Position numbers and translations under genes: made by a program | NCBI RefSeq assembly: GCF_013122565.1 | Contig: NZ_CP053258.1 | Source: Escherichia coli | GTDB taxonomy: Bacteria; Pseudomonadota; Gammaproteobacteria; Enterobacterales; Enterobacteriaceae | Strand: one strand, 5' to 3' | Length of the DNA: 64,000 nt | The notes under the pieces: model-generated | Told to the model about the DNA's origin: nothing | The model's input: only the letters and a program-made list of their open reading frames with translations | Database searches by the model: none | In this document: piece by piece, positions 41,474 to 63,524 of the stretch | How positions within the stretch are numbered: the stretch's first letter is position 1 | How the letters are laid out: every line of letters starts with the position of its first letter

Positions 41474-43312
41474 TTAAAAAATAACAGTATCAAACTTCCC
41501 AGAGTATATAAACTGGTTCAATGCCCGGTAATATGCTTCCCTACTGGCAACAGGAACATTTGCGGCATCAAACATTCGTTCAGTAAGATCTTTCATTTCT
41601 CTGCTACTTACTGTTGTCCAATCCACTTTCCCACCAACTCTTCTTCCGGTTTTCTGCTCTAACCAATCTCTATATACTTTTTTTGTTGCAGCATGATTAG
41701 CCTCGGATAATGCAATTGTTGGTGACTTTGAAGGATATTTCCCTCCATAAGATGGCACATTCTTAGACATCCAAATATCAAGCACACCATGATGGTTTTC
41801 TAAAGAGGAATTAATTGGTCGATAAGGAACAACATCAAACTCTTTAACTTCACCGCACTTAAGTCCAAGGGGATCTATCCACCCCAGCGGATTCGGCGCA
41901 TAAGCATACTGGTTCAGCCCACCCGCCAGCCCTATCGGGTCCTGGCTTACGAACCGCCCGCACTCCGGCGCATAATACCTGAACAGATTATAGTGCAGCC
42001 CCGTCTCTTCATCATAATACTGCCCCGGCAGCCGCAGCGGCTGTTCAAAGTACGCCCCGCTGTTGCTGATATCGCCCCGGTTTTCGCCAAATCCCGCCTG
42101 GTAGCCCGCCCACACCAGCGTCCCGTCCGCCGCGGTCACCTCCTGTACCGTGCCCGTCAGGTCCGTGTGGTAATACCAGATTTTTTGACTCTCTCCGCGC
42201 CCCGTGATGGCGGCCACCGGCGTGTACGGCTGTTCCGCGTCGTACAGGTATGTCCGCTTTCCCTGCCACGTTGTCTCCTGCAACAGCCGGAACCCTTCCC
42301 ACACAAACGTTGTCCGGCTTCGTTCTCCCCGGTCCGTATGGCGGCCATATGTCGCCTTGCTGATGCGCCTGCCCAGCGCATCATACTGATACCGCGTCTC
42401 GCTGTTGCTGCTGATGACCCGCGTTAACTGGCCCTGCGCGTTCCACTCCAGCTGCTGGTCCCTGCGCTCTGTCAGTTCGCCCCATTCGTTATAGCGGTAG
42501 CGGTCACGCCCGTAGCCCGGCAGGCGGTTATCCATCACCGCTCCCTGATATTCATCCGTCAGCAGGTTGCCCGCTTTATCGTAATAATAATGGTCATGGT
42601 CATACATCTGCCCCGTGCGGCTGGTCAGCCAGCCGCTGCGGTCATAGCTGAACACCAGGCAACCGCGCAGTTTGTCATTGATGCCGCCGACTTCACCGTC
42701 TGCGTTCCAGATATAGTCCCGCGCTGTCACGCTGTCGCTGTGTGACGGGGGTGTGGCTGTCTGCTGTGGGTTCTGGCTGCCGCCTGGCAGGCTGCGCTGC
42801 CAGCTTAACCGGTTGTCGGCGTTGTAGCCGCTGAACGTCGCCAGTTTCCCCTGGGTGCGCATCACCTGACGGTGCAGACTGTCACGCTCATATTCACTGA
42901 CCGTGATACCGTCCAGTGCCGTCTGGAGCAGATGTCCGCTGCCGTAGTAAAGATGGCTGAGGTGCTGCCCGTTCGGTAACGTGATGTCGGTGGGATTGCC
43001 CAGCGCGTCACGCTGATATTTTATGCTGCCGTGCACGCTGTGCTCTGCCGTCAGCCACCCGCTGCGGTCATACGCAAAGCGCACCGTGTCCGCCTGCATG
43101 TGGTGCAGCCGTTCCCCTTCTTTCGTCGGGGTGAGCGTCACTTCCGTTATCTGGTCAAGACGGTTGTAGCTGAAGGTCCGTGTACTGTGCTGCGTGTCAC
43201 TGCGCAACAGGCGGCCCAGCGCATCACGCTCCTGTCGCTCATTACGCACCCCGCCTTCTGTACCCTGCGTCTGGATGATGACCGGATACCCGCCCGCATT
43301 CAGCACAAACAT
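41474..43312 (-). CDS. Orphan rhs C-terminal toxin module 1: 5'-truncated Rhs core (~1.6 kb retained, homology up to ~43468) plus unique ~130-aa tip
   Basis: Core identical in register to the main rhs from ...[12 protein letters not shown] to DPLGL; tip KCGEVKEFDVVPYRPINSSLENHHGVLDIWMSK... (possible xHH nuclease-like motif, weak). Confidence 0.65.
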   Translation of the reverse strand: MFVLNAGGYPVIIQTQGTEGGVRNERQERDALGRLLRSDTQHSTRTFSYNRLDQITEVTLTPTKEGERLHHMQADTVRFAYDRSGWLTAEHSVHGSIKYQRDALGNPTDITLPNGQHLSHLYYGSGHLLQTALDGITVSEYERDSLHRQVMRTQGKLATFSGYNADNRLSWQRSLPGGSQNPQQTATPPSHSDSVTARDYIWNADGEVGGINDKLRGCLVFSYDRSGWLTSRTGQMYDHDHYYYDKAGNLLTDEYQGAVMDNRLPGYGRDRYRYNEWGELTERRDQQLEWNAQGQLTRVISSNSETRYQYDALGRRISKATYGRHTDRGERSRTTFVWEGFRLLQETTWQGKRTYLYDAEQPYTPVAAITGRGESQKIWYYHTDLTGTVQEVTAADGTLVWAGYQAGFGENRGDISNSGAYFEQPLRLPGQYYDEETGLHYNLFRYYAPECGRFVSQDPIGLAGGLNQYAYAPNPLGWIDPLGLKCGEVKEFDVVPYRPINSSLENHHGVLDIWMSKNVPSYGGKYPSKSPTIALSEANHAATKKVYRDWLEQKTGRRVGGKVDWTTVSSREMKDLTERMFDAANVPVASREAYYRALNQFIYSGKFDTVIF

Positions 43313-43517
43313 CCGTATCAGACCGTCCGGGCGCTGTTCTCCCGTCAGCCGTCCGTCCGCATCGTGACTGAACCGGTAAAGCGCTCCGTTGCCGTTGCTC
43401 AGACTGGCAATCCATCCCTCCGCGGTATAATGCCAGCGCGTCTCCCGTTTCTCTTCATCCGTGTGGCACGCCAGTTAACATACGTCTACTGACAAAACCA
43501 TTAGTCCAAACAAAATC

Positions 43518-48474
<4,957 letters not shown>

Positions 48475-48497
48475 AGAAAAATTCCTTTTATATTTTT

Positions 48498-50711
48498 TTA
48501 TTCAGAAACGTCCGGGGTAGGTAACGGGGCAATATCATCCGCAGTCATGGCTGTGCCGCCATCCGGATTCATATCAATGCCACTGCCAATGAGTTGCATA
48601 ACATCGCTGGTGTGCAGTAAAAGTTGTTTTCCGCAAAACTCAATCGAGCCATCCTTGTGTAATACAAGCGCTGCATTGCCGCAACGAAGGGTAAATTGAT
48701 CGCCAACATCCAGACGATATGTCGTTCCGACATTGATGGTTTGAGCCAGTTTGACGGAAAGACCATCATTTTTTGTGATGGTGGCATTACGGTCTTCTCC
48801 CACGCTGATGGTTTCATTTTTGACAATGGTTTTTATGCGATCGACCATGACCGTGTGGGTTTCATTGTTTTTTACCGTGGTATTGAGGTCTTTTTCCGCA
48901 TGGAACTTCACCTCTTCTGCCCCCGTTTTATCGTCAAAGCGCAGCATGTTTCCGTTGGTCGGCCCGCCATACAGCGAGTGGCTGAATATCCCGCTCTGCG
49001 AGGCCATACCCGGCAGTCCCCACGGCGGCATGGTGTCCTGGTTATAGGTGCGCCCTACAATGATCGGTAAATCCGGGTCGCCGTTTTTGAAATCCACCAG
49101 CACTTCCTGACCGATGCGCGGGATCTGGATCATGCCGAATCCTTTCCCTGCCCACGGATAGCTGACGCGGATCCAGCAGGAGCTGTTTTCGTCATTATTA
49201 CCGTAACGATCCCAGCCAAACTGCACCTTCACCCGTCCATATTTGTCCGTCCAGATTTCCTGCCCCGCCGGGCCGGTGACGATGGCGCTCTGCGGGCCTT
49301 TGGTGTGGGGTTTGCTCAGGGTTCGCTGTGGGCGGTAAACTTCGCTGGTTGGGTGCAGTTCAAACGTGGTGACATAGGTAAAATGCTGATCCTGGCCGCT
49401 GTGCTGCGCATTGTCCCGTAAAAACAGCGTGGTCTGTACCAGCAGGTATTCCTGATTAATTTCTGCCGTCGGGTGATTCATCAATGTAAAGGTGTACCCG
49501 GTCATGAGGGTACGGATATGACCGGCCCCATGTGCCCGGCTGCCTGGGCTACGCTGCGCTTCCATACGAATACGCGTCAACATCTCGCCTTCGCCCGTAG
49601 TGAAGTAATCACCAGGCCATTCGTAATGCTCGTATTCAGCATGACCGGTATCACGCGGACTGGCCACGGTACTTTTAAGCAGCGAACGAGGCTTCATAAA
49701 ATCAAAATCGTCCATCACCCACTTTCCAGTACGCAGCCTCTCACTGGCCGTAATGGTGTGAATAAATTCCTTATCCAGTTTCAGCCCTTCCTGGTGCCAC
49801 TCCACCAGTGGCGAGTCAGGGCACGCTTTATGACCATTGATGGCATCCGCCAGCACCAGCGTGTGGCTGTTCTCGCTGTGCTCAAACCACCAGTAAATTC
49901 CCCACTCCTGCATCAGGCGCTGGATGAAATCAAAATCCGTTTCACCGTACTGTACCTGCCAGGCACGAGGTGGATAATTTTCCACCAGCCGTTTTTCCAC
50001 CGGAAAGGAATATTCATCCAGTACTTCATCGAGAATATCCACCACGGTTTTATTCTGGAACGCTTTGTAGTCGCTGGTGTGGGTCAGCAGTTTCAGCCAC
50101 GGTTCAATGCGTAATTCATACGTTACCGAGCGGCCCTCATGGCCCACCACCCGCGCCGCTGTCACCAGCCCGCTGATATGCCGTTTGCCGCCGCCGTCCA
50201 GTTCGATATTGACGCACAGATCTTTGCCCACCATGGGCTGAAGCGGCAGGTTAGCAGCGGGGGAAACGTACCCCAGGTTCAGGGCGTCCGGCGTTTTAAG
50301 CTGTACTGTGTAGGAAAACAGATTCCCAAGCCCTTCCGAACCATTCATGCCTGCAAACAAAAGCATCTGCGGCGGCACCGCACTACCACTTACTGTGACG
50401 TTATGCGCCCCCGGACCACCTGCAGCAAGCGACGCCGCCGCATCCTGAACTGCACCAGCCATATCCGATATCCCTGCTGCGGCGGCTGCGGCTTGCGCAG
50501 CAGCTACTGCGGCTTTAACCAGACCTGACGGTTCCGGCAACGCACCAAACAGGTCCGCCGCTGCCTGTTCTACCATCTGCTCGGCTGCATCAGCTACATC
50601 GGTTGCGGCTGAACCAGGGCTTATACCACCACTTTCGCCAGCTATTGGTGGTGTGGTGATGACGGGTCCACCGTTTCCAACTGGTTTATTACCCGTAGAT
50701 ACAAAACTCAT
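48498..50711 (-). CDS. vgrG: T6SS spike protein VgrG (737 aa as the longest ORF, includes a ~100-aa Ala/Gly-rich N-terminal extension; true start uncertain)
   Basis: gp27/gp5-like VgrG body ([25 protein letters not shown]..., C-terminal ...[19 protein letters not shown]...); N-terminal [22 protein letters not shown]...[10 protein letters not shown] segment precedes the conserved start of the VgrG fold. Confidence 0.85.
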
Positions 50712-50735
50712 GATATTTGCTCCTTTAATACCGGA

Positions 50736-51122
50736 TTAAAATCTAGCCCCTGGTGGCCAAAAAATATAAGTAATAACTCTCCATTGCCCGTCTTTATAAT
50801 GAAACCAACATGTCAGATTCAAATCCCCCTGCAAATTCCAGAACATTTCCTTAATAGGAACATCTTGAAATTCAGGATCTGTTATGCGATAAGTTTGATT
50901 CAAGCCGATATAATACTCACCAACAAATTTATATCGTGGCCTCACGAACTCATGAGCAGGCGGCCCATATTTTTTCATAAAAAAGATGTCATTACTTCCA
51001 TCATGTATATCATTTTCTTCATAATATTTGGTGGATTGAGCAACTGCAGAAGGCTTGAAAACATTCACTGTAGTTATGTAAGTTATTGAAAGAAAAATCA
51101 CTATAATGCAGAAAAATTTCAT
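50736..51122 (-). CDS. Predicted periplasmic immunity protein 1 (signal peptide; paralogue of 52819..53181)
   Basis: 128 aa, MKFFCIIVIFLSITYITTVNVF... signal peptide; shares ...EFQDVPIKEMFWN..DLNLTCW.HYK.GQW.VI...WPPG..F with the paralogue; 4-nt overlap with upstream effector gene. Confidence 0.6.
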   Translation of the reverse strand: MKFFCIIVIFLSITYITTVNVFKPSAVAQSTKYYEENDIHDGSNDIFFMKKYGPPAHEFVRPRYKFVGEYYIGLNQTYRITDPEFQDVPIKEMFWNLQGDLNLTCWFHYKDGQWRVITYIFWPPGARF

Positions 51123-51820
51123 TTGGTTACATTCAATAAAGTAAATTTAGTTTCAGGCATTATGACATTCAACGTTATAGTTGCGTTTTTAAGGTATCGT
51201 TCCCGAAGCTCCATTCCCACATTCATCAACCCACTAATATCTCCAACATACGGAGACGAAGAATCATAATCATCATCTAAGTAACCAAGTACATGTCCGG
51301 CTTCATGAGGTATATTTACTTGCAACGTATTGTTACAGTTAATACATTTCGCTACTTTTTCCAGGTCCGCTGAATCAACATGAACCGTACTGTTTTTAAA
51401 ATCAACATATGTTCTTAAATCAGCACCAGGCAAAACCTTTGTTGCAATAACCAACCAGTCTTCATTCTGAGATGCAGAAATTATTCTTACATCAAAAGGC
51501 AAAGCTTTACCCTGAAATTTTTTAGCGAACTCAGATTCACCGGAAACAGAATAAGTTATTTTCCCATTCCATGCCTGCTGAACAGATAAATATATCGCTC
51601 GCATAAAAATAGCTTTTTCCCATATAGTCCAGTCATCTGTAACGGTATTATCCTTATACCACTCATACTTCCATCTTATCACAGCCGTAATCGAACCAGT
51701 ATTTTGATTTAATAAATACGTCCTCCTACCATCCTTATGTATAATGATATCGCCATCAATATTTGTTTTTTCATAGTATTCGGCCAGCAAACTATTCTCA
51801 TCATATTTAAGCTTGGTCAT
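51119..51820 (-). CDS. Candidate T6SS effector 1: HExxH zinc-metallopeptidase-like protein (233 aa)
   Basis: HEAGHVLGY motif plus conserved block LMNVGMELRERYL shared with the 268-aa paralogue; AT-rich; no signal peptide; followed by a signal-peptide protein. Confidence 0.6.
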   Translation of the reverse strand: MTKLKYDENSLLAEYYEKTNIDGDIIIHKDGRRTYLLNQNTGSITAVIRWKYEWYKDNTVTDDWTIWEKAIFMRAIYLSVQQAWNGKITYSVSGESEFAKKFQGKALPFDVRIISASQNEDWLVIATKVLPGADLRTYVDFKNSTVHVDSADLEKVAKCINCNNTLQVNIPHEAGHVLGYLDDDYDSSSPYVGDISGLMNVGMELRERYLKNATITLNVIMPETKFTLLNVTK

Positions 51821-52032
51821 TTTACTCTCATTAAATAATAATTATTTGTATCGAAAATATTATTTTATATATTACGAGTATTGCCCCTTCAGCCGCAGCG
51901 CATCCACATACCGTCCTTCACTGCAGGGCAAGATTACGAAAGCCCGCCCCCCGCAAGGACTGACGCGAGGTAGTTTCTGTCCATGGCTGCTTTTCTCATC
52001 TTACGTCTTAACCCTGCCTTGGTTTCGCCGTA

Positions 52033-52794
52033 CTACACCTGCCAGGCGCGGGGGGGATAATTTTCCACCAGCCGTTTTTCCACCGGAAAGGAATATTCAT
52101 CCAGTACTTCATCGAGAATATCCACCACGGTTTTATTCTGGAATGCTTTGTAGTCGCTGGTATGGGTCAGCAGCTTCAGCCATGGCTCAATGCGTAATTC
52201 ATACGTTACCGAACGGCCCTCATGGCCGACCACCCTCGCCGCCGTCACCAGCCCGCTGATATACCGTTTTCCGCCACCGTCCAGTTCAATGTTGACGCAC
52301 AGGTCTTTGCCCACCATGGGCTGAAGCGGCAGGTTAGCAGCGGGGGAAACGTACCCCAGGTTCAGGGCGTCCGGCGTTTTAAGCTGTACTGTGTAGGAAA
52401 ACAGATTCCCAAGCCCTTCCGAACCATTCATGCCTGCAAACAAAAGCAGCTGCGGCGGCACCGCACTACCACTTACTGTGACGTTATGCGCCCCCGGTCC
52501 ACCGGCAGCAATCGACGCCGCCGCATCCTGAACTGCACCAGCCATATCCGATATCCCTGCTGCGGCGGCTGCGGCTTGCGCAGCAGCTACTGCGGCTTTA
52601 ACCAGACCTGACGGTTCCGGCAACGCACCAAACAGGTCCGCCGCTGCCTGTTCTACCATCTGCTCGGCTGCATCAGCGACATCGGTTGCGGCTGAACCAG
52701 GGCTTATACCACCACTTTCGCCAGCTATTGGTGGTGTGGTGATGACGGGTCCACCGTTTCCAACTGGTTTATTACCCGTAGATACAAAACTCAT
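52033..52794 (-). pseudogene. vgrG: vgrG 5' fragment (N-terminal ~255 codons duplicated; body replaced)
   Basis: Near-identical to the first ~780 bp of vgrG at 49935-50711, including the Ala-rich N-terminal segment; homology breaks near 52017-52036. Confidence 0.75.
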
Positions 52795-52818: not shown

Positions 52819-53181
52819 TTAAAATTTGGATCCTGGCGGCCAATAAACTCGGGATATAACTATCCATTTACCATTTTTATAATGAAGCCAACATGTTAAA
52901 TTTAGATCTTTATTAACATTCCAAAACATCTCCTTAATAGGAACATCTTTAAATTCAGGATTATTTGAAGGGTAAGTCCGTTCTATGCCACCATAATAAA
53001 TACCTACAAAATCATGCCTTGGGTTTATAAAATAATGTTCAGGAGAACCATATTTTCTCACTAGTGAATCTTCATCATCCCCCCACTGAACATCTTTGTT
53101 ATGCATCTCACTGGCAAAAATATCTAGAGTTACAAGCAATATCAATAACGTAAAAAATAGAGCGATTTTCTTCTGGATCAT
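52819..53181 (-). CDS. Predicted periplasmic immunity protein 2 (signal peptide; paralogue of 50736..51122)
   Basis: 120 aa, MIQKKIALFFTLLILLVTLDIFA signal peptide; conserved C-terminal block with paralogue. Confidence 0.6.
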   Translation of the reverse strand: MIQKKIALFFTLLILLVTLDIFASEMHNKDVQWGDDEDSLVRKYGSPEHYFINPRHDFVGIYYGGIERTYPSNNPEFKDVPIKEMFWNVNKDLNLTCWLHYKNGKWIVISRVYWPPGSKF

Positions 53182-53984
53182 TTTATTACACTCGCAACAG
53201 AAAACGTAGTTAAGGGATATACTAAATTCAAGTCAATACAGACACCTTCCAGGTAGCGTTCCCGAAGTTCCATCCCAACATTCATTAACGCGGCAGTATC
53301 TATTTTATATTTAGACACAGGCTTACCAAACTTATCAAGTTCATATTCATCCTCCAGATAACGAATCATATGTCCAATTTCATGAACTATATTTACCTGA
53401 TAAAAACCACATATTGACTGATTCTCTGGAGCACATTTTTCTGATAACGAAGTATCTTTAAAATAAAAATGAGCAAACCGATTTTTCCAGTTAACATAAG
53501 GCCTGCCATCATCATTACCAGGAACGGTTCTTAATACGTCTACATTCCAGTGTTCTTTTTGATGGACCGGAATCATATTTATGCTGAAAGGCAATCTTTT
53601 ACTCTTGAATTTCTCAGCAAAATCAGAGTCCCCTGAGACAGATAAAAATATCTTATCATTCCATCCATAACAGATTGCAGAAAATGATTCATATATAAAA
53701 CTAACTTCATCCAGGTATGTCCAGTTATCTCCTACATTGTTCTGATTCACCCAGTTAAATTTCCATCTCATTAATAATGCAATGTCGCCTGTATCACTAT
53801 TCAGGATATATTCGCCATGTTCTGTATTCATCCTGAGACACTTCCCATCTTCTACGGTGTCAGGGCAAAACTTATGCATGAGTTTAATAAAGAATTCATG
53901 CGATAGATTTATTTTACTCTCTCCAACAACACCATCTACATGTGTTGTGAGCGAACCAGATTTATTCCCTGAAGAAGAACTCAT
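53178..53984 (-). CDS. Candidate T6SS effector 2: HExxH zinc-metallopeptidase-like protein (268 aa)
   Basis: HEIGHMIRY motif and LMNVGMELRERYL block; first ~10 codons and the 25 bp upstream resemble the vgrG 5' end (MSSSSGNKSGS vs [11 protein letters not shown]). Confidence 0.6.
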   Translation of the reverse strand: MSSSSGNKSGSLTTHVDGVVGESKINLSHEFFIKLMHKFCPDTVEDGKCLRMNTEHGEYILNSDTGDIALLMRWKFNWVNQNNVGDNWTYLDEVSFIYESFSAICYGWNDKIFLSVSGDSDFAEKFKSKRLPFSINMIPVHQKEHWNVDVLRTVPGNDDGRPYVNWKNRFAHFYFKDTSLSEKCAPENQSICGFYQVNIVHEIGHMIRYLEDEYELDKFGKPVSKYKIDTAALMNVGMELRERYLEGVCIDLNLVYPLTTFSVASVIK

Positions 53985-54311: not shown

Positions 54312-54773
54312 CTACTCATCCGTACAACCCAGCCCCCGGCGCTGAACCACTTCACTGGCAAACGTTGCTCCGGTTTTTTTCATTATTCCCTGCTGGATTT
54401 TTTGTAACTCCGGGTATACAACCCGCTCACATTCATTTATTTCCCATATGTCACCCGTCTTAGGACTAACCGAAAACAACCCTAAATAGTCTGTTGCTCC
54501 AGCAGTCGGCGTATCATAGCCAAGACTAAAATCATAATATCCGGGATGAGGCGCATTGCCCTGACCATCCTGTAAATCTCCATCAATAAAAATCCCTTCC
54601 AGCGATAAATTATACTTTTGGTGCCTGAGTACAATAATAAGCAGTTTTTCCGCCTGTGCTTTCGTCATCCCTTCGCGGTTTATATCTGATAAATTAAATT
54701 CAGACGTATTCCCCTGAACGTAGCAAACCGCAGAGGCAAGAAGAAAAAAAACAAATATTATTTTACGGGGCAC
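54312..54773 (-). CDS. Predicted periplasmic immunity protein for the glucosaminidase-like effector (signal peptide)
   Basis: 153 aa, MPRKIIFVFFLLASAVCYVQG signal peptide; overlaps the upstream effector stop. Confidence 0.55.
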   Translation of the reverse strand: MPRKIIFVFFLLASAVCYVQGNTSEFNLSDINREGMTKAQAEKLLIIVLRHQKYNLSLEGIFIDGDLQDGQGNAPHPGYYDFSLGYDTPTAGATDYLGLFSVSPKTGDIWEINECERVVYPELQKIQQGIMKKTGATFASEVVQRRGLGCTDE

Positions 54774-55228
54774 GCCATTCTCCTTCCGACCATAATAATA
54801 ATGTCAGCAGTTTTTTTGGCATAATTATCTGTTCCGCCTGTGCTACTATCTCCAGAATTAAATCCGGCCTTTACCAGAGCATCACAGAAAGCCAAAGCAT
54901 CCTTTATGTCTCTGGCTGCATTACCATATTTTATTGCAAAAGATCGTGCACAGATTGAAAAAGACGGAAAAGTAGCCACCCGGGTTTTCTTGTTACCGTG
55001 CGGACGGATTTCGCCTGACTGAAATGATGCAGGGGCATGCAGGGAGAAATAGTTGTTATATTCCCTGGCAATACGGCCTGTACCATACTGGCTCTCCGCC
55101 GCGGCAAGCCCCAGAATATTTTCCACAGGAACATTAAGTTGTTTAGCGATTAATTCACATTCTTTCAGATGCTGCTGAACAAACCTTACTGCATTAACAT
55201 CATTACAGGCTTTGTCATAAGACCCCAT
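54758..55228 (-). CDS. Candidate T6SS glycoside-hydrolase effector (GH73 / FlgJ-type glucosaminidase-like, Tge-like)
   Basis: 156 aa; ILGLAAAESQYGTGRIAREYNNYFSLHA matches the GH73 catalytic-Glu region pattern (A..ES.wG.......NN.FG); no signal peptide; followed by a signal-peptide protein. Confidence 0.55.
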   Translation of the reverse strand: MGSYDKACNDVNAVRFVQQHLKECELIAKQLNVPVENILGLAAAESQYGTGRIAREYNNYFSLHAPASFQSGEIRPHGNKKTRVATFPSFSICARSFAIKYGNAARDIKDALAFCDALVKAGFNSGDSSTGGTDNYAKKTADIIIMVGRRMACPVK

Positions 55229-55255: not shown

Positions 55256-56029
55256 TTAATGCTGCCGGATATCCAGCCGCAACGCATCCACATACCGCCC
55301 CTCGCTGTTCTGCTGCCAGAACCAGCCCTGCCCCTGCTGCGCCTGCGTCAGCATTTTGTCCGGCCAGCCCGGCCACGGCAGGTGGCGCACACCGGGCAGT
55401 TCCACTACCGGCACGTCCGGCAGGCCGGTGAGTTCCCGGCTACGCTGCGGTACACGTCGTAAGCCGCGTAGCCACTGCGCCCAGCGCGGCCCCGGTCGCC
55501 ACATCGCCCAGAGCTGGTCTGTCTGCTCCGCCAGTCGACCGCAGCGTTCTGTCTGTGGTGAGACATGAGCTGCCGTCAACTGCGCCAGCCAGTACAGCCA
55601 GCCCTTTGTGTCATCCAGGCTCTCTTCCAGCCATTCCCGCCCGGCACGCTGGTAAATCACCAGTGGCCACGACCTGCCCGTACTGTCACGTGAGGCGGTC
55701 AGCACCCCGGTCAGCCACTCATCGCGCCCGCCAATGGGGAGAAATCCCGGCGATAATACAAAGCTCCACGGTAGCGGATGGTGTTCCGGCACCTCCGTTT
55801 TCTCGCGCGGTGACAGGTGCATCCAACCGTCATTTACTCCGGTTTTCGCAGCATCCGTTCCTTCCGGCAGAACAATATGCCGCCCCTGTCCCAGCCACGT
55901 CTGCTGGTTCAGCCACGCCTGCCACACCTGCCCATCGTTCGCGCTCACCCGCCAGCGCACGTAGTCCCGCTGATCCGGCAGTCTGCCGAACATCGCCGGA
56001 ACCGATACCACCGCAGCCCGGCGCATCAC
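55256..56029 (-). CDS. tagF: T6SS-associated protein TagF-like (DUF2094)
   Basis: 257 aa directly downstream of and overlapping tssM; 3'-end sequence recurs as ~30-100 bp remnants at 54196-54300 and 51888-51912. Confidence 0.6.
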   Translation of the reverse strand: MMRRAAVVSVPAMFGRLPDQRDYVRWRVSANDGQVWQAWLNQQTWLGQGRHIVLPEGTDAAKTGVNDGWMHLSPREKTEVPEHHPLPWSFVLSPGFLPIGGRDEWLTGVLTASRDSTGRSWPLVIYQRAGREWLEESLDDTKGWLYWLAQLTAAHVSPQTERCGRLAEQTDQLWAMWRPGPRWAQWLRGLRRVPQRSRELTGLPDVPVVELPGVRHLPWPGWPDKMLTQAQQGQGWFWQQNSEGRYVDALRLDIRQH

Positions 56030-59000
56030 AGCGCTCGCTCCGGGCAGGCGAAGCGTTGCAGTAGCCCACGGTTCACCGGGTCAAAATCCCGTCCTGCGGT
56101 GATTTCCAGCACCACCCGCCGCCCGTCAAAGCTATATTCAACCTGCTGTGTTCCCCGTACCGCCGTCTCCTGCGCGTTACCCGCATCCAGCAGGTGAAAC
56201 AGCGCCCACGGTCCGTTAGTCAGCAGCGTCGAGGTGTCCTGGCGGATGCGCGGGCTGGCGGTGATTTCCGCCATTGAGCCGTTGCGCGGCCCCGGCCAGT
56301 TCACTTTCAGCGGTCTGACCGGGCCGTGAGCGTAACGCAGCACCTGACCGTCGATATCAATCACCAGTTCAGTGATTGCAGGGTCCATATCCACGACGCG
56401 GACCTGCATCGCCCAGGAAAACTTTTTCCCGCCTTCACCGTTAAAAAAAACGCTGCGGATCTGTTTCGCCTCCTGAAACGGCGTCAGGTCCGGCCCCTGT
56501 AAGGTCATGTTGCCTTCGGTCGGTTTGTAGCGCCACGGGTTGCTGGCGGTGTCCGCCAGCGGGGCCAGTTGCTTCGTCCAGAACGCATCCAGCACACCGC
56601 CGCTGGCAAAGATATGGTTAAAATCGTCCGCGCTGACCTCCTGCGGGCTGTCGGTAAAGGGGTAGCGCCCGTCAATAGCATCACGGCACTCATCGCCAAT
56701 CACCGCTTCCATCTGCGCGTTCAGCACTTCACCGGTGCCGGCGTTGATTTTGCGCGTTCCCTGCTGCGTGAGATCCAGCAAAATATTTTTCAGCGGTGCG
56801 GGCAGTTTTGCCGCCTCCAGTTGCAGTTTATCCGCCGCCGAAATACGGCCAGGTAATGTGCTCGCTGCCAGCGCGCTGTCGGCGATGGTGAGCTGGGTGT
56901 AATATTCATTGAGCATTGTCAGCAGCGAATTTAACTGCGGCGCGCCACCAGTCTGCCCGCTGTCTGTCCGCCCGGAAACCACTTCCCGCAAGGCGGCGAA
57001 ACGGTCATCCACCAGTGATTTCTCCAGCCGCTCTTCCGGGTGGATGTCCTGTAACAGCTTTGCCGTCTGCCCCGCTTTTCCCACATTGCCGGAGAGCCGG
57101 TCCTGCGCACGCTGGGCCATCTGCTTTTGTCTGGCCTGCGCATCCAGCGGCGGCACCAGCGTGGTCTGCTCCACCACCGCTTTACTCAGGCGCATCAGCG
57201 GGGAATCCGGCGAGGCCAGGGTACGCAGCACCTGAAGGTCATACGCCAGCCCGGGACTGCCGTCTTCCCCGGCACTGTTGATGCTGTGAATACTTGCCAG
57301 AAAATCCTGCCAGCGGCGGGCATATTCAGCCAGGTACAGGCGGCGTACCTCACGGGTAACCGGGAGTTCCTGCCCCGGCAACTGGCTCATCACAATATCC
57401 GTTGTTTTTTTTTGCGCGTTTTCCCGGCCCATCACCCAGGCATCGTCCGCTGATGCGGCTGCGACAAACTCCGACAGCCGTTTGTCGAACAGTTCCCGGT
57501 AGCCTTCGCGAGTGAAGATGCCGGGCACGCCCCTATCCAGCGGCGCGCCATCCGTGCGGACAAAAACCGTTCCCGCATCCGCGCCCACAGCGCGAACCAG
57601 CGAAAACTCCTGCGGTGCTTCGCTCTCCATGGAAGCCAGGGCTCGAGTGTAGATACGCTCGGTGCTGGTATGGCCGTCAAGGAAGGCTCGCGCCTGGCGG
57701 ATCAGCCCCTCATCTTTTTCCCAGGGCGAATGCACCACGCGGCTGCCGTCAAACAGGGCATCGATATGCTCCAGCACGGCGGCGCGACCGCCGAACTCCG
57801 CCACGCTGTCGCGGTTGTCCAGGTCGTTCAGCACCCAGGCGTGGATCTCCGCCGCGTTGTATTTATCCTCGTGGTCCTTATCGAGGTTCAGCAACAGATA
57901 AACATGCAGGGCGTCATAGGCGGCTTTGCTGTCCTGACGCGCAATCGCATCCGAAAGCACGTATTCCATGCGTTTCACCAGCGGTGGCAGCAGTAACTGG
58001 TCCAGCAGGCGGTCATACAGGGATGCGACGCTCTCCATCACCGGCGGAACGCTGTAAAGACCATAACGCCAGGCCAGCGGCGGCGAGTCCGGGTCCAGTC
58101 CCGGCCAGGCAGAGAGCGCCCGTGCCTGGTTCAGCAGGGCCGGAACAGGCTGCATAGCAGGTTTTCCGGTATAGGCTTTGACATCACCATCCAGTTGGGT
58201 CGTCCGGCTGGCGATTTCATTCAGATAACCGCTGTTACCCTGCTGGCTGCCCTGCATTCCCTGCCACAACCAGAAAGCCAGCGCCAGTACCAGCAGATGC
58301 CCGCCAGTGCGCAGCAGGCGGTAACGCCAGGCCCACTGAAGGTTCGGCTCCACCAGGTGCGCTTCGCGGAAGATAAACTGCGTCAGTAGATCGTGCAGGA
58401 AATAGCTGCGGTTGCCGTCCGGCAGGGTATGGGATGGGGAATCAGCCTTCCCTTTGATAGCACGGACAAAACGCTGCCAGATGCCCGTCTTGTCAGCCAC
58501 GGCGTCTGCCTGCGCCTGCGCGGCGCTGGTAAAAAATACGCCGCGCAGGGTGTTGTTAAGCTGGGTGGCGTCAAATTTTGAATCGAGGAAAATCTGCTCA
58601 ATGGCTTCCAGCAGCGGCGCACCCAGCGCGGCAAATTCACGCGGGAAGCGATAGAGCCGCTGGCGGCTTTTAAGGTCGTACTCTTCCTGCAACCGGGTAT
58701 CCAGCCCCTGATCCAGCCGCAGGGTCAGGTTTGCCAGTTCCTGGCTACAGAGCGCATGCAGCGACTGCGGATCGCTGGCGTGACGCCTGCGGCTGTATGG
58801 CAGAGTAAAGCCCCAGACCTGGGCGCGCAGGTGGCTGGTCAGCCCGTGGAAATACTCCGTAAAGCCCGGCAGCAGATCCATCTTGGTGACAACCAGATAG
58901 ACCGGAAAACGAATACCCAGCGTCTCCCGCAGTTCCGCCAGCCGCGCACGCAGGGCCGCACAGGCAGCCAGCCGTTCCGCCGGGGACTGCGCAGTCAGAT

Positions 59001-59892
59001 CCGCCACGTTCAGCGTCAGGATCACGCCGTTGAGCGGTGCGCCGGGGCGGTGTTTACGCAGCAGTCCCAGAAACCCGTGCCACTCCCCGGCGTTGCGCTG
59101 GGTCGCGCTGATTTCGCCACCGTCATCGTGACGGGCATAGCGCCCGGCGGTGTCAATAAGCACTGCTTCGTTGGTAAACCACCAGTCGCAATGCAGCGTT
59201 CCGCCGCCCGGCACGGTGAGGATATGCGCGGTTTGCTCCATCTGCTCCGCCAGCGGAAACTGCAATCCGGTGTTGAGCAGTGCTGTGGTTTTACCGTCGC
59301 CGGGGCTACCGATAACCATGAACCAAGGCAGTTCGTACAGAAAACGTTTTCCTTCCAGTACGTTACGCCAGCCCGGCAGGTCTACGCGCAGCTGTTTCAG
59401 TTGCCGAATAGCGCGAGTGACAATATGGCTGACGGTGCGTAAGTCGGCTTTAATTTCCCCGGCCACCGGTACGTCTTCCCCGCGCGGATGCAGGAAACGG
59501 CGCAGCAGTTGTTCGTCCAGACGCAGCGCCCGCCACAGCCGGTACAGGCCATACAGCGCATAAGACAGAAGGATCAGGCCGATAAGCGTCAGACGCAGCC
59601 ACAGCGGCGCAAATGGATGAACATCACCGAAAGCCAGCAACGGTGAGACAAAGCCGATAACCAGGCACAGAACCGTAACGCCAATGATGCTCATAGACCA
59701 GTTAACCAGCCACAGTGCGAGGAACATCAGTAACAGAACGATGGTGACTAACCGACTTCCCACGGACGCGAGTGGATGCAGGGTGTCAAACGCGACCAGC
59801 GGCCCAATAAACCAGACCAGCAACGCCAGCATTACCAGGCCAACAATGGCCAGCGCGCGGCGGGAAAACAGCATACTGAGAAATTTTTGCAT
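56026..59892 (-). CDS. tssM: T6SS membrane core protein TssM (IcmF-like)
   Basis: 1288 aa; N-terminal TM helices, Walker A GSPGDGKTT, large periplasmic C-terminal region; GC-rich. Confidence 0.9.
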   Translation of the reverse strand: MQKFLSMLFSRRALAIVGLVMLALLVWFIGPLVAFDTLHPLASVGSRLVTIVLLLMFLALWLVNWSMSIIGVTVLCLVIGFVSPLLAFGDVHPFAPLWLRLTLIGLILLSYALYGLYRLWRALRLDEQLLRRFLHPRGEDVPVAGEIKADLRTVSHIVTRAIRQLKQLRVDLPGWRNVLEGKRFLYELPWFMVIGSPGDGKTTALLNTGLQFPLAEQMEQTAHILTVPGGGTLHCDWWFTNEAVLIDTAGRYARHDDGGEISATQRNAGEWHGFLGLLRKHRPGAPLNGVILTLNVADLTAQSPAERLAACAALRARLAELRETLGIRFPVYLVVTKMDLLPGFTEYFHGLTSHLRAQVWGFTLPYSRRRHASDPQSLHALCSQELANLTLRLDQGLDTRLQEEYDLKSRQRLYRFPREFAALGAPLLEAIEQIFLDSKFDATQLNNTLRGVFFTSAAQAQADAVADKTGIWQRFVRAIKGKADSPSHTLPDGNRSYFLHDLLTQFIFREAHLVEPNLQWAWRYRLLRTGGHLLVLALAFWLWQGMQGSQQGNSGYLNEIASRTTQLDGDVKAYTGKPAMQPVPALLNQARALSAWPGLDPDSPPLAWRYGLYSVPPVMESVASLYDRLLDQLLLPPLVKRMEYVLSDAIARQDSKAAYDALHVYLLLNLDKDHEDKYNAAEIHAWVLNDLDNRDSVAEFGGRAAVLEHIDALFDGSRVVHSPWEKDEGLIRQARAFLDGHTSTERIYTRALASMESEAPQEFSLVRAVGADAGTVFVRTDGAPLDRGVPGIFTREGYRELFDKRLSEFVAAASADDAWVMGRENAQKKTTDIVMSQLPGQELPVTREVRRLYLAEYARRWQDFLASIHSINSAGEDGSPGLAYDLQVLRTLASPDSPLMRLSKAVVEQTTLVPPLDAQARQKQMAQRAQDRLSGNVGKAGQTAKLLQDIHPEERLEKSLVDDRFAALREVVSGRTDSGQTGGAPQLNSLLTMLNEYYTQLTIADSALAASTLPGRISAADKLQLEAAKLPAPLKNILLDLTQQGTRKINAGTGEVLNAQMEAVIGDECRDAIDGRYPFTDSPQEVSADDFNHIFASGGVLDAFWTKQLAPLADTASNPWRYKPTEGNMTLQGPDLTPFQEAKQIRSVFFNGEGGKKFSWAMQVRVVDMDPAITELVIDIDGQVLRYAHGPVRPLKVNWPGPRNGSMAEITASPRIRQDTSTLLTNGPWALFHLLDAGNAQETAVRGTQQVEYSFDGRRVVLEITAGRDFDPVNRGLLQRFACPERAL

Positions 59893-60179
59893 TATTGTTC
59901 AGAACTCCATGCGATAATCAGTAATAGCAAAATGCCGCAAGCTGAAAAAATCCTTCCAGTACGGGCTACTGAAAGAAAATAAAGAGCAATCTGAACAATT
60001 ATCAAAATAAAATAAATCAACATTTTGATTATTTCTCTGTTCCCATTTCCCTGAGGCAACGTTGTCATTGAAGGATCCATATCCTGCATCCATTGATACT
60101 CATTCCCGGAAAAAAGCATGATGATGATCAGACCCATAATGAATAACAACCATCCTGATATCTGAATTATTCTTCTCAC
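59892..60179 (-). CDS. Small polytopic membrane protein (95 aa), candidate immunity/accessory protein
   Basis: Two to three hydrophobic helices (WLLFIMGLIIIMLF, IYFILIIVQIALYFL, ACGILLLLIIAW); AT-rich; stop overlaps the tssM start. Confidence 0.5.
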   Translation of the reverse strand: MRRIIQISGWLLFIMGLIIIMLFSGNEYQWMQDMDPSMTTLPQGNGNREIIKMLIYFILIIVQIALYFLSVARTGRIFSACGILLLLIIAWSSEQ

Positions 60180-60187
60180 GAAGACTC

Positions 60188-60871
60188 CTAATGGGCGATG
60201 AGTAAATTAGAGAAATGCAACCAGTTGTTGACAATAAAATTGCCATAGCTGGTATCTTCCTTTATTTTCTCCAGAGTAAGCGACATACCCCGGTTATAAC
60301 GGGCACCAATAATTCTTATCTGCTCTTTCGTCAGGTGTGGTAAGGAGGACTGAAATTCATCTCTTTCAGCTAATTTATAAATATGTCTGGCCACAAGTTG
60401 AATATTAAAAATATCATGCTGGAGGCAATTTGCCAGTTCACGCAATTGAGAGGTATCCATTTTTGACTCATCAAGCCCAAGCGTTCTGGCTGCGGTTCGC
60501 AATTGCATACTCACTGCACCAAAAGATGTTTTTTCTGGTCTCGAAGTTATTGTGATATGTTCATCAATCCACTCAGGCCCACTCCAGTCAATAGTCCGAG
60601 CATCAAATGCCAGCATATCTACAATACTGGGATCCCCCCCGACTTCTATCCAACACACACCTGCCAGTAAAGGTGCTGGCAAATTATATGTATTGGCAGC
60701 CGACGTTATCAGAAGATGGTTATGTTTTACCCAGCCATCTTTGAAATAACGCCCAAACGGTACACCACCGCCCCATTTTTTTGGCGCTAATTTCCAGAAA
60801 AGAAATTCGGTCACGCCCCATACCGGTGAATGATTCGATGCATTGCAGTCCAGATTATTCATTTTTCTCAC
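60188..60871 (-). CDS. Unknown 227-aa protein inserted between tssL and tssM (candidate effector or peptidoglycan-remodelling accessory protein)
   Basis: AT-rich (~40% GC) in a GC-rich operon; contains LLAGVCWIEVGG and FGAVSMQLRTA, loosely reminiscent of lytic transglycosylase / Cys-hydrolase motifs; no confident family assignment. Confidence 0.5.
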   Translation of the reverse strand: MRKMNNLDCNASNHSPVWGVTEFLFWKLAPKKWGGGVPFGRYFKDGWVKHNHLLITSAANTYNLPAPLLAGVCWIEVGGDPSIVDMLAFDARTIDWSGPEWIDEHITITSRPEKTSFGAVSMQLRTAARTLGLDESKMDTSQLRELANCLQHDIFNIQLVARHIYKLAERDEFQSSLPHLTKEQIRIIGARYNRGMSLTLEKIKEDTSYGNFIVNNWLHFSNLLIAH

Positions 60872-62184
60872 TCCACCACCAGAATTTCCACCCGACGGTT
60901 CTGCGCCCGTCCGGTTTTAGTGCTGTTATCGGCCACCGGTACGGTATCTCCTTTCCCGACGACCCGAATCCGGCTGACCGGAACACCACCGGACGTCAGC
61001 AGTGAAGCCACTTCCGTCGCCCGTTTTTCCGACAACACCTGGTTGGAGGGGAATTCAGCGGAGTGGATCGGCTGACTGTCGGTGTGTCCGGTCACCGTCA
61101 CCGCGCCGCCCACACGCGCAATCTCTCGCGCGGCCTTATCAATCACCGGGCTTAGCGCATCATTCACGGTTTTCTGCCCTGGTATAAACATCGTATCGCC
61201 ACGAAAGATTACACGGCTGTGATGGTCATCTTCCTCCACCGTCAGCAGGCCACGGGCGATTTCGTTCGCCAGCAGGATTTTCAGCCGCAGTTTATGCACT
61301 GGAACGGGTGGCGGCGGTAGATTTTTACCAATGGCGTCGATACGCTGTTGTACGGTTTCGGTAGCGAGGTTCATCCGGTGGCTGTAAAGGCCAAACAGCG
61401 TCAGCATCACCAGCAGAGCGATTCCGGCGCTCAGCCAGACCGGCACCCGGCGCATCCGCCGCATTCGCCCACTGACGGCACCGGCAAAACCCGGCGAGAG
61501 CATCGGCGTGATTGGATCGCGACGCTGGACCAGTTGAGTCAGCAGTTGCTGACGGATATCGTCCAGTTGCTTACGCCCGTCAGGCCGTACACTGTAGCGG
61601 CCTTCAAAACCCAGCCCCAGAATGTGGTAGATGATCTCCAGTACATCGTTGTGCTCCTGGAAGCTTGCGGCCAGACGCCCAATTATCTGAAACAGCTTGA
61701 TGCCGCCTTCACTTTCGCCATGAAAAGTGACCAGCAGGCTTTTTCCAGCCCAGACACCGCGCCGTCCCCAGGTGGTGTTGTTGGCGGCTTCGTCCAGCGA
61801 AGTGCATAGGCAATAACGCACAGCCAGCACATGTTCGCGGCGAAGGTTTGCTTGATCGCATAACGTCTGATATCGACGAACTTCACGCTCCAGTAGGGCG
61901 CGATAATGTTCGACAAAACCAGGGGATAGTTCACGGGGCATTTGCGCCAGCGCGCATAACAGAGGGCTGGCCGCCGCCAGGAGAGGATTCACAGCACCAG
62001 TGATCTCAGCCAAACGGAGCTTCAAATCTGGCCCGTCTTCAACCACCACCTTTATATCTTCCCTGCGAAGGCTGTCCTGGATGAGCGTATCGTAACCTTC
62101 ATTATCAGGCGACCTTGTTCCCTTCATTGAAGTCTGTAATGGCAGAGTATTCACCGCAGGTTGCGTCAGAATATCGTCGGTCAT
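60868..62184 (-). CDS. tssL: T6SS membrane protein TssL (DotU-like) with C-terminal OmpA-like peptidoglycan-binding extension
   Basis: 438 aa; DotU-like N-terminal domain, TM helix (VWLSAGIALLVMLTLFGL), C-terminal OmpA-like domain (VTVTGHTDSQPIHSAEFPSNQVLSEKRATEVASLL...NRRVEILVVE). Confidence 0.85.
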   Translation of the reverse strand: MTDDILTQPAVNTLPLQTSMKGTRSPDNEGYDTLIQDSLRREDIKVVVEDGPDLKLRLAEITGAVNPLLAAASPLLCALAQMPRELSPGFVEHYRALLEREVRRYQTLCDQANLRREHVLAVRYCLCTSLDEAANNTTWGRRGVWAGKSLLVTFHGESEGGIKLFQIIGRLAASFQEHNDVLEIIYHILGLGFEGRYSVRPDGRKQLDDIRQQLLTQLVQRRDPITPMLSPGFAGAVSGRMRRMRRVPVWLSAGIALLVMLTLFGLYSHRMNLATETVQQRIDAIGKNLPPPPVPVHKLRLKILLANEIARGLLTVEEDDHHSRVIFRGDTMFIPGQKTVNDALSPVIDKAAREIARVGGAVTVTGHTDSQPIHSAEFPSNQVLSEKRATEVASLLTSGGVPVSRIRVVGKGDTVPVADNSTKTGRAQNRRVEILVVE

Positions 62185-63524
62185 TTATCGCGAACTCCCC
62201 ACAGCTCCAGCTCCAGGCCTGGAAACTCTCCGGCGGTATGCATTGCCATACCGCCATAGCGGGCGATATGTTCCCACAACACGCCGTCGCGGCGGATGTC
62301 GTAATAGATGTAACCGGACTGAAACGGGATCTGACGCGGTGGCACTGGCAGCACCTGTAGAACAAGACCAGGAAGGTGCGAGCGAATTAGTTCCGGCAGG
62401 CGTTCTGACGGCCCTATTTTGGTCTGAGCCGAAAAATGTTGTAGTAAGGTGTCGGCGGACATCTGTGCCTTCACCGCCAATACTAACGAGCTGAAATCTG
62501 ACAGTTCGGTAGGTTCAACCACCGCATTGAGAATACCGTAAATTCCCTCTTCCAGAGGGATTCGCTGCGCCCCACGTATTAGCACAGCATTCAGCAGATA
62601 CTGAACCTCGTCCACTACCGATTTCAGCCCGGCATAGGGCGTCAAATGCTTATATTCTTTATATTCTTCCGGACGGCGTGTTTGCGGGCGCACGTAGGTA
62701 GAGAGTTCTCCGGCAAGTGCGCAGAGGTTACGATACAGCACCTCAGGCGACAGCGGTGTTTTCGACATATGGATCAGTAAGGGGCCGAAACGATTAAGAA
62801 CTTGCAGAAGCAGGTAATCAGACACTTCCGCCGCTTCATGACCGTGTTTGTCGCTCCCCGTCAATCGTTCCGCCAGTGAATTTGCACGCATTTTTATCAG
62901 ATCGTTAATCCACGATAGCCAGGTACATATCAGCGTACTGGCCTGGTAGTTCGCCACTGGCGGGATCAACTCTTTGTCTATATCGACCCGACCATCGGGA
63001 TGCAGCGCCGTGATGCGTGTCAGCGGCAGGCCGATCCACGCGTCTGTCACCGCCTTTTCCGGTAATAGTCGCAAGCGTAGGTGGCTAAGTTGCAGCAGTT
63101 GCGCGCCGCGCCCTAGCGAATTGGCATCACGGATTTCATTTTCATGCACCGAAAAGCGTGCCAGTGATTCAGGGTTATTGTCGAAGCTTGTTTCTTCACT
63201 GTTCGGCGTACGTATTGGCACAGCCAGATAAATCAACTGGTTAAGATGTTCTGGAAGGATGGTCAGAGGCGGCGGGAGTGGTGTGTGACCCGGCGCATTA
63301 AAAGGAGTACCGTCAGCAAATACTCCGGAAGCCTTTGTAAGTACCAGTTTTCCGATGTTCAGCGCCTCACTACCAATTCCATACTCATTGAACCCCCAGA
63401 AAAAAGGTGAAAGAGGCAAACTGCGATAATGAATGACATGTTCCAGATAGCGTTCCTGCTGCTGAAACATCTGTGGCAGCAAAAATTGTCCTTCACTCCA
63501 GACCACCCGGTTATTCCAACTCAT
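62181..63524 (-). CDS. tssK: T6SS baseplate protein TssK
   Basis: 447 aa, MSWNNRVVWSEGQFLLPQMFQQQERY... typical TssK N-terminus. Confidence 0.9.
   Translation of the reverse strand: MSWNNRVVWSEGQFLLPQMFQQQERYLEHVIHYRSLPLSPFFWGFNEYGIGSEALNIGKLVLTKASGVFADGTPFNAPGHTPLPPPLTILPEHLNQLIYLAVPIRTPNSEETSFDNNPESLARFSVHENEIRDANSLGRGAQLLQLSHLRLRLLPEKAVTDAWIGLPLTRITALHPDGRVDIDKELIPPVANYQASTLICTWLSWINDLIKMRANSLAERLTGSDKHGHEAAEVSDYLLLQVLNRFGPLLIHMSKTPLSPEVLYRNLCALAGELSTYVRPQTRRPEEYKEYKHLTPYAGLKSVVDEVQYLLNAVLIRGAQRIPLEEGIYGILNAVVEPTELSDFSSLVLAVKAQMSADTLLQHFSAQTKIGPSERLPELIRSHLPGLVLQVLPVPPRQIPFQSGYIYYDIRRDGVLWEHIARYGGMAMHTAGEFPGLELELWGVRDK

Follow-up and report, generated by a model that had tools for sequence, protein, structure and literature searches.

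The window analysed here is a 64,000-nucleotide stretch of Escherichia coli DNA (contig NZ_CP053258.1 of RefSeq assembly GCF_013122565.1), and its last 10 kb are a type VI secretion system (T6SS) operon on the minus strand. The genes run in the order tssJ (partial), tssK, long-form tssL, X, Y, tssM, and tagF, where X denotes the gene of a 227- or 224-amino-acid (aa) protein, depending on the start codon, and Y the gene of a 95-aa protein. Coordinates refer to the window throughout, unless a locus label such as L008 precedes them. X and Y, which form a putative effector/immunity pair, are the subject of this analysis.

X occupies positions 60188..60871 (minus strand, 227 aa) when its GTG start is included and 60188..60862 (224 aa) when read from the ATG; both RefSeq and the family alignment prefer the ATG at 60862 over the GTG at 60871. 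Y is an open reading frame (ORF) of 95 aa at 59892..60179 (minus strand) with a GGAG sequence upstream of its GTG start. The genes are tightly packed: five nucleotides (nt) separate the tssL TGA from the X ATG, the Y TAA and the tssM ATG overlap as TAATG, and no convincing terminator was found between them. tssL, X, Y, and tssM are packed as one operon. The upstream flank, tssL (60868..62184, minus), encodes the long form with an OmpA-like peptidoglycan-binding domain (NCBIfam PRK08126, 650 bits; TIGR03349; TIGR03350), and the downstream flank is tssM (56026..59892, minus; NCBIfam TIGR03348, 1058 bits), whose start codon overlaps the Y stop.

The base composition of the two genes differs sharply from that of their neighbours. 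X has an overall GC content of 0.43 and a third-codon-position GC content (GC3) of 0.40, and Y has 0.36 and 0.39, compared with 0.57 and 0.61 in tssL, 0.61 and 0.71 in tssM, and a GC3 of 0.74 in tagF. An original prediction, made from the sequence alone, had reported two AT-rich genes between a GC-rich tssL and tssM. Its coordinates are confirmed, and the composition comparison gives a GC3 of 0.39–0.40 for the pair against 0.61–0.71 for the flanks. RefSeq labels X as hypothetical and Y as either hypothetical or a ‘DUF2645 family protein’.

The original prediction placed X in no known family, which holds at the level of sequence. Searches of Pfam (up to E ≤ 10), NCBIfam, and the PDB sequences came back empty, both for X as a single sequence and for a 36-sequence profile. 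Against all PDB sequences, including those of Tse3 and Tge2 (4kt3), the profile returned nothing at E ≤ 10 apart from an unrelated match to MtrE. Likewise, X lacks a family hidden Markov model match to Pfam SLT (PF01464), which corresponds to glycoside hydrolase family 23 (GH23), even at E ≤ 10, and just two of 40 X relatives reach SLT at E ≤ 0.1. The X family is nonetheless large and strongly conserved. A word-indexed search recovered 299 clusters at 90% identity, and a profile run against 1.84 billion representative proteins recovered 450 relatives, each representing a cluster at 50% identity. X shares 52–63% identity with proteins of Rhodanobacter, Burkholderia, Yersinia, Paracidovorax, Methylobacter, Massilia, and others, from Gamma- and Betaproteobacteria.

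Alignment of 36 homologues highlights five invariant residues (W71, E73, G76, D77, and P78), all within a WIEVGGDP motif at residues 71–78 (60629..60652, minus strand; translation checked) that contains Asp77 and Glu73, the predicted catalytic acid. Further conserved motifs are T112-S-F-G115..S118..Q120 (T-S-F-G-x-V-S-x-Q), G186-x-R-Y-N-R-G192 (with A-R-Y-N-R-G), and Y206-G207. By eye, these motifs look similar to three that SLT enzymes carry, namely E-S, GLMQ, and AYNxG. In a separate alignment of 40 fusion proteins that carry the X domain (see below), E273 shows no variation.

Structure prediction, which the original prediction had recommended, gave a confident AlphaFold2 (AF2) model of X, with a predicted local distance difference test score (pLDDT) of 87 and a predicted template modelling score (pTM) of 0.84. 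The top five Foldseek matches in the PDB are all entries of the Pseudomonas aeruginosa muramidase Tse3 (E 0.015–0.08). On this model, X is a protein of the lysozyme/lytic-transglycosylase (SLT) fold without a signal peptide: no Sec signal peptide is present, and the N-terminus, MNNLDCNASNHSPVWG, is hydrophilic. Since the fold is closest to that of a muramidase, peptidoglycan is the likely target. The sequence fits hydrolytic (muramidase, as in Tse3) and lytic-transglycosylase chemistry alike and does not tell the two apart.

Y is a polytopic membrane protein, as originally proposed. Hydropathy places three hydrophobic helices at about residues 6–24, 50–70, and 76–92, and the AF2 model places them at residues 1–23, 46–69, and 73–94. 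Both the N-terminus and the loop between helices 2 and 3 are basic, which suggests an N-in topology; the loop that follows helix 1, ∼25 residues long, would then be periplasmic. Conservation in Y peaks in this loop, at NEYQWMQDMDPS (60069..60104, minus strand; translation checked), which comes right after helix 1 and is predicted to face the periplasm. Y sequences share just 16–30% identity with each other. Across 23–36 partners, Tyr28 is the sole invariant residue, D35 and Q63 are conserved in at least 90%, and W30, M31, and P36 are kept in most. With the exception of Q63, which is in helix 2, these residues fall within a (N/D)KYxWMxxxDPS segment right after helix 1. A linked X-(GGGGS)6-Y AF2 model, built with 26 paired sequences, reached a pTM of 0.69 and predicts a short helix at QWMQDM; it speaks neither for nor against binding between the two proteins.

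Y is also distantly similar to the Pfam family DUF2645 (PF10840). The NCBI annotation pipeline (PGAP) names the Y protein, WP_001542644.1, a ‘DUF2645 family protein’; the Pfam match itself is weak (E 0.016), and among 23 Y relatives 14 match at E ≤ 0.1 and two at E ≤ 0.001. In YjeO, the E. coli K-12 namesake of the family, three helices are arranged as in Y, and DKEWM comes right after helix 1. However, the scores are marginal, and YjeO has Glu at the position of the Tyr that never varies in the Y family. At the K-12 yjeN-yjeO locus (L068 9394-10019), the gene upstream of yjeO is yjeN, which does not resemble X; YjeO might be an orphan protein of the immunity type. We found no literature on DUF2645 or on the RefSeq accessions of the pair.

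The interval between tssL and tssM is variable in E. coli. Of 5,426 complete E. coli genomes compared with the region, 144 match it. Identity to E. coli chromosomes is 99.7%, and 98 of the 144 carry the complete X-Y slot. Fifteen genomes with an orthologous T6SS instead encode a 122-aa Tlde1-domain protein and a 147-aa partner between tssL and tssM. A Salmonella pair of these sizes has been listed as a candidate effector/immunity module (PMC10469887). In blastn comparisons, homology between X-Y and Tlde1-type loci ends exactly at the tssL stop (breakpoint 60868) and 56 nt upstream of the tssM ATG (breakpoint 59948). These breakpoints delimit an exchangeable cassette at 59949..60867, which has no homology to the E. 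coli strains with the Tlde1-domain pair in the slot. Tlde1-type strains retain a degraded remnant of the Y 3′ end (...IGKTFSACGLLLLMITMWSSEQ*) just upstream of tssM, suggesting that X-Y was probably the earlier occupant of the slot and was replaced later. In E. coli 2012C-4221 (L008 9393-9720), the Y remnant is broken by stop codons and ends ...FSACGLLLLMITMWSSEQ*, directly upstream of tssM.

A different outcome is seen in E. coli E69 (CP089930.1; L010 10001-10972), where a frameshift splits X into ORFs of 40 and 184 aa and Y is intact. The C-terminus of tssL is also altered in this strain, and its T6SS appears to be decaying yet to retain the presumed immunity gene. A broken toxin gene beside an intact partner is a common pattern in effector/immunity pairs. 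Variable presence among orthologous clusters, together with foreign composition, is likewise what such a pair would display. Orthologous T6SS loci that universally carried the two genes at matching GC content, the refuting condition set by the original prediction, would have spoken for structural components; this is not what the genomes hold, and the result favours an acquired pair.

Outside E. coli, the pair is spread across Proteobacteria, both within T6SS clusters and far from them. We examined 54 single-domain X loci on contigs drawn from one genome per species. A three-helix gene of 95–115 aa follows X in nearly all of them; the clear exceptions are L019, L023, L048, L054, and L055. In Snodgrassella alvi, X-Y lies after tagF of an orthologous T6SS cluster, and the tssL-tssM slot of that cluster (L011 4647-5171) holds an unrelated 174-aa gene with no family match. 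The Snodgrassella X-Y is followed by a 199-aa ORF and then by four ORFs of 153, 153, 159, and 159 aa (L011 11227-13762), an arrangement that resembles an effector gene with an array of immunity genes behind it. X-Y adjoins an orphan hcp gene in six loci, among them hcp-X-Y in Pseudomonas caricapapayae and a Burkholderiaceae metagenome-assembled genome (MAG), and hcp convergent to the pair in P. graminis, P. tremae, and a related Pseudomonas; vgrG is near in two loci, both from MAGs. A Salmonella enterica contig carries X-Y within a run of Rap1a/Tae4, glucosaminidase/Tgi2PP (Tge2/Tgi2), and DUF2195/Tlde1 pairs that ends at vgrG. The pair thus sits inside a T6SS cluster or beside hcp or vgrG in E. 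coli, Snodgrassella, Salmonella, and the hcp loci, which include independent lineages, as expected of T6SS cargo. Most other copies are free-standing two-gene units amid unrelated genes.

One of the exceptions has a different neighbour. In an Azoarcus MAG (L054 10001-11563), an X relative with 44% identity has no Y-like gene after it. The next gene encodes 249 aa instead; its product has a hydrophobic N-terminus and gives matches to the FGE-domain families PvdO, GldK, and EgtB. FGE-like proteins are a described class of T6SS immunity proteins (bioRxiv 10.1101/2021.05.21.445229).

The X domain also occurs in larger proteins. Many of the 450 X relatives carry it at the C-terminus of proteins of 300–1,088 aa. 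A Pfam census of 40 sampled longer relatives identified the extracellular contractile injection system (eCIS) domain eCIS_core (DUF4157) in nine, PG_binding_1 in three, OmpA in three, and PAAR, DUF4280, and WXG100 in one each. In two further X proteins, Rhs/YD-type core motifs are recognizable by eye right before the X domain. Several eCIS_core-X and PG_binding-X fusions (P0160, P0163, P0201, P0183, and P0153) share a conserved middle region shortly before the X domain (FAIRS.AGS.VK.G...Y.W..ENDP...), which may be the source of weak Pfam Ntox3 matches.

Two of the fusions were examined together with their neighbouring genes. A PAAR-X gene comes directly after vgrG, and the ORF behind it (L064 7081-7410) is Y-like, with three helices and the sequence NEYDGM. 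Similarly, a cyanobacterial eCIS_core-X gene is followed by a three-helix ORF (L067 7880-8218) containing YPYEW. A Y-like membrane protein therefore accompanies the X domain in both cases although the delivery modules differ, as expected for the immunity genes of polymorphic toxins: the small partner gene is co-inherited with the toxin domain whatever module delivers it.

The gene anatomy, foreign composition, and fold, the polymorphism of the slot, the co-inheritance of X and Y, and the association of the X domain with T6SS and other delivery domains are all computed results. Because the slot is variable, the pair is mobile, and the X domain recurs in such fusion architectures, we favour the reading that X-Y is a horizontally acquired T6SS cargo effector and immunity protein, co-transcribed with tssJKL and tssM, in which X would cut peptidoglycan and Y would protect against it. 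We put the probability of this reading at about 0.78. The original prediction had offered a membrane-targeting effector/immunity pair as one of two possibilities. The acquired pair is borne out by the slot, the mobility, and the fusions; the membrane target is not, since X has a lysozyme/SLT fold and, of the two proteins, only the presumed immunity protein is a membrane protein.

The course of events that we infer covers secretion, toxicity, substrate, catalysis by Glu73, and the mode of immunity. The signal-less X would be loaded onto the T6SS, probably via Hcp, a route suggested by the hcp-X-Y operons and by the small size of X. It would then be fired into the periplasm of neighbouring cells, where its lysozyme/lytic-transglycosylase-like domain would cleave the glycan backbone of peptidoglycan. 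In the producer and its kin, Y is predicted to reside in the inner membrane in an N-in orientation that exposes the loop following helix 1 to the periplasm. We conjecture that Y neutralises incoming X, most plausibly by offering the (N/D)KYxWMxxxDPS segment to the active-site cleft.

Several observations weigh against this reading. A polytopic membrane protein is an unusual type of immunity protein for a peptidoglycan hydrolase; the characterised examples, Tsi3 and Tgi2, are located in the periplasm as soluble proteins or lipoproteins. The Y loop has low confidence in the linked X-Y model (pLDDT 57–72), which lacks a readable interface. The Foldseek E-values that connect X with Tse3 are weak (0.015), and X has no sequence-level homology to any solved protein. 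In approximately 43 of the ∼54 single-domain loci, the nearest 10 kb hold no T6SS gene, and a dependence of these copies on a T6SS is assumed. X also matches PHROG family phrog_11932 (E 3e-73; function unassigned), which indicates that some of its relatives lie in regions called prophage.

The alternative that survives best keeps X-Y as a true effector/immunity pair and changes its target to something other than mature peptidoglycan, which could be lipid II, strands newly made at the synthase, or a different polysaccharide of the envelope. A membrane-proximal glycan is conceivable as the target because the immunity protein is membrane-embedded. However, the best structural neighbours of X all cleave mature peptidoglycan, and several X fusions carry PG_binding_1 or OmpA-like peptidoglycan-binding domains. 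We regard a different target as improbable.

A second alternative, which we consider very unlikely, returns to the other possibility raised by the original prediction, a peptidoglycan-remodelling accessory factor. X would then be a dedicated enzyme that opens the producer's own wall for assembly of TssJLM, and Y would anchor or regulate it. Such enzymes have precedents: MltE is recruited in enteroaggregative E. coli (EAEC), TagX serves in Acinetobacter, and EtgA and VirB1 serve in other secretion systems. The proposed chemistry stands, but the role does not agree with the distribution of the pair. Fifteen E. coli genomes that share this T6SS have a Tlde1-domain pair in place of X-Y, Snodgrassella carries X-Y after tagF and another gene in the slot, and most X homologues are far from any T6SS gene. 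Lacking a signal peptide, X would also be barred from reaching its own periplasm via Sec. Foreign composition likewise argues against an assembly factor, as do the proteins in which the X domain is joined to a PAAR, Rhs/YD, eCIS-core, or WXG100 delivery module. For similar reasons we rejected a secretion-system-dedicated lytic transglycosylase of the EtgA, VirB1, or IagB type as a candidate identity: X has no Sec signal and is replaced or absent in orthologous clusters.

We find it equally hard to credit X-Y as an endolysin and holin-like pair, that is, a lysis cassette or a type-10-secretion-like release system in which Y lets the signal-less muramidase X cross the producer's inner membrane. 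A signal-less lysozyme-fold protein beside a three-helix protein of ∼95 aa, a typical holin size, the phrog_11932 match, and the many free-standing two-gene copies would all suit that idea, but a tblastn search with X of 50,697 phage genomes gave zero matches (leading us to discard the phage lysis cassette), Y has no PHROG match, phage and spanin genes are absent from the flanks examined, the charged C-terminal tail seen in class I holins is missing from Y, whose conserved part is a predicted periplasm-facing loop, and the PAAR, Rhs, and eCIS fusions and the adjacency to hcp and vgrG are left unexplained.

The effector/immunity reading can be extended, tentatively and at well below even odds, to a widespread toxin/immunity superfamily not described before. 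In this wider proposal, a lysozyme-fold warhead would be shared across the T6SS (as free cargo or fused to PAAR or DUF4280), Rhs/YD, eCIS (DUF4157), and WXG100-type systems, and immunity would come from a very small polytopic protein of the inner membrane, whose short conserved loop on the periplasmic side would block the enzyme. If so, Y would be a lysozyme inhibitor tethered to the membrane, in contrast to Tsi3, Tgi, Ivy, and the Pli/Mli inhibitors, and DUF2645, including YjeO of E. coli K-12, would be an immunity family.

The narrower reading of X-Y as a T6SS pair would itself supply a function for a strongly conserved, unannotated protein family and a candidate membrane-embedded inhibitor of a cell-wall glycosidase. 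X is predicted to be a small, portable peptidoglycan hydrolase, and such enzymes are of interest as enzyme antibacterials. The tssL-tssM interval would become a fourth variable cargo slot in the SPI-6-like (Salmonella pathogenicity island 6-like) T6SS of E. coli, in addition to the three published variable slots or regions, which follow tssC, tssM, and vgrG (PMC10469887). The Salmonella T6SS effector surveys (PMC10469887 and PMC12994826) describe neither the X family nor this slot, and we found no description of either in the searchable literature; large bioinformatic effector catalogues may list the domain unnamed.

The remainder of the T6SS region provides context for the pair. tssK (62181-63524) and tagF (55256-56029) are both on the minus strand, and RefSeq gives the cluster an SPI-6-like gene order: tssH, tssBC, Tae4/Tai4, hcp, tssJKL, X, Y, tssM, and tagF, then vgrG, DcrB, and Rhs. 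A second AT-rich pair (54312-55228, minus) lies right downstream of tagF and encodes proteins of 156 aa, with weak FlgJ/glucosaminidase matches, and 153 aa, with a hydrophobic N-terminus. It looks like a Tge2/Tgi2-type pair, since proteins of the same sizes at the corresponding place in one Salmonella contig match Pfam Glucosaminidase and T6SS_Tgi2PP. A third, very AT-rich pair (52819-53984, minus) encodes 268 aa and then 120 aa, with GC contents of 0.36 and 0.33 and GC3 of 0.31 and 0.26. Neither protein matches NCBIfam; against PHROGs, the 268-aa protein has no match and the 120-aa protein a marginal one (E 0.049). This pair adjoins a vgrG fragment and may be a further effector/immunity pair. 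The fragment is a truncated vgrG N-terminus (52033-52794) upstream of a full vgrG (48498-50711), after which come a PAAR-Rhs gene (43871-48010) and an orphan Rhs C-terminal tip (41474-43312). The stretch 41474-52794 is a typical displaced-toxin array.

Among named systems, the closest parallel is Tse3 (Tge1) with its immunity protein Tsi3, a T6SS muramidase pair of P. aeruginosa. We propose that X works likewise. Like the Tge effectors, it has a lysozyme-like fold with a predicted catalytic Glu. X has no detectable sequence homology to Tse3 (profile against PDB sequences) and is shorter, at 224 aa compared with about 400. The immunity proteins differ too: Tsi3 resides in the periplasm, and Y spans the membrane with three helices. 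More generally, Tgi proteins, the partners of Tge effectors, are soluble or lipoprotein periplasmic proteins, in contrast to Y, which has three helices and only about 25 residues predicted to be periplasmic. In sequence comparisons covering Tse3 and Tge2, X is not demonstrably a member of a named Tge family. The Family 1 lytic transglycosylases/GH23 enzymes (Slt70, MltE, and MltC) and goose-type lysozyme share the SLT fold with X; unlike them, X lacks a Pfam SLT match, a signal peptide, and a lipobox, is not a housekeeping enzyme, and has an immunity-like partner. Two other proteins were considered and set aside as identities for X: T6EC3 (PMC11148199) is a SleB homologue and a different protein, and PseM/PA0989 has a signal peptide and an unrelated fold.

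Similar in genomic setting are Tge2/Tgi2 and Tlde1/Tldi1 of variable region 2 in Salmonella SPI-6 (PMC10469887), which are likewise small AT-rich pairs that target the cell wall and lie in a T6SS cluster of the same type. In the tssL-tssM slot, the allelic alternative to X-Y is a Tlde1-domain pair, and a Tge2-like pair lies downstream in the window. These pairs differ from X-Y in their enzymes, which are a glucosaminidase and an L,D-transpeptidase-like protein, and in their immunity proteins, which are periplasmic and carry signal peptides. The general understanding of T6SS effector/immunity biology is unchanged by X-Y, which, as far as its sequence indicates, would be an unnamed T6SS cell-wall glycosidase effector with its immunity protein, of a kind already known.

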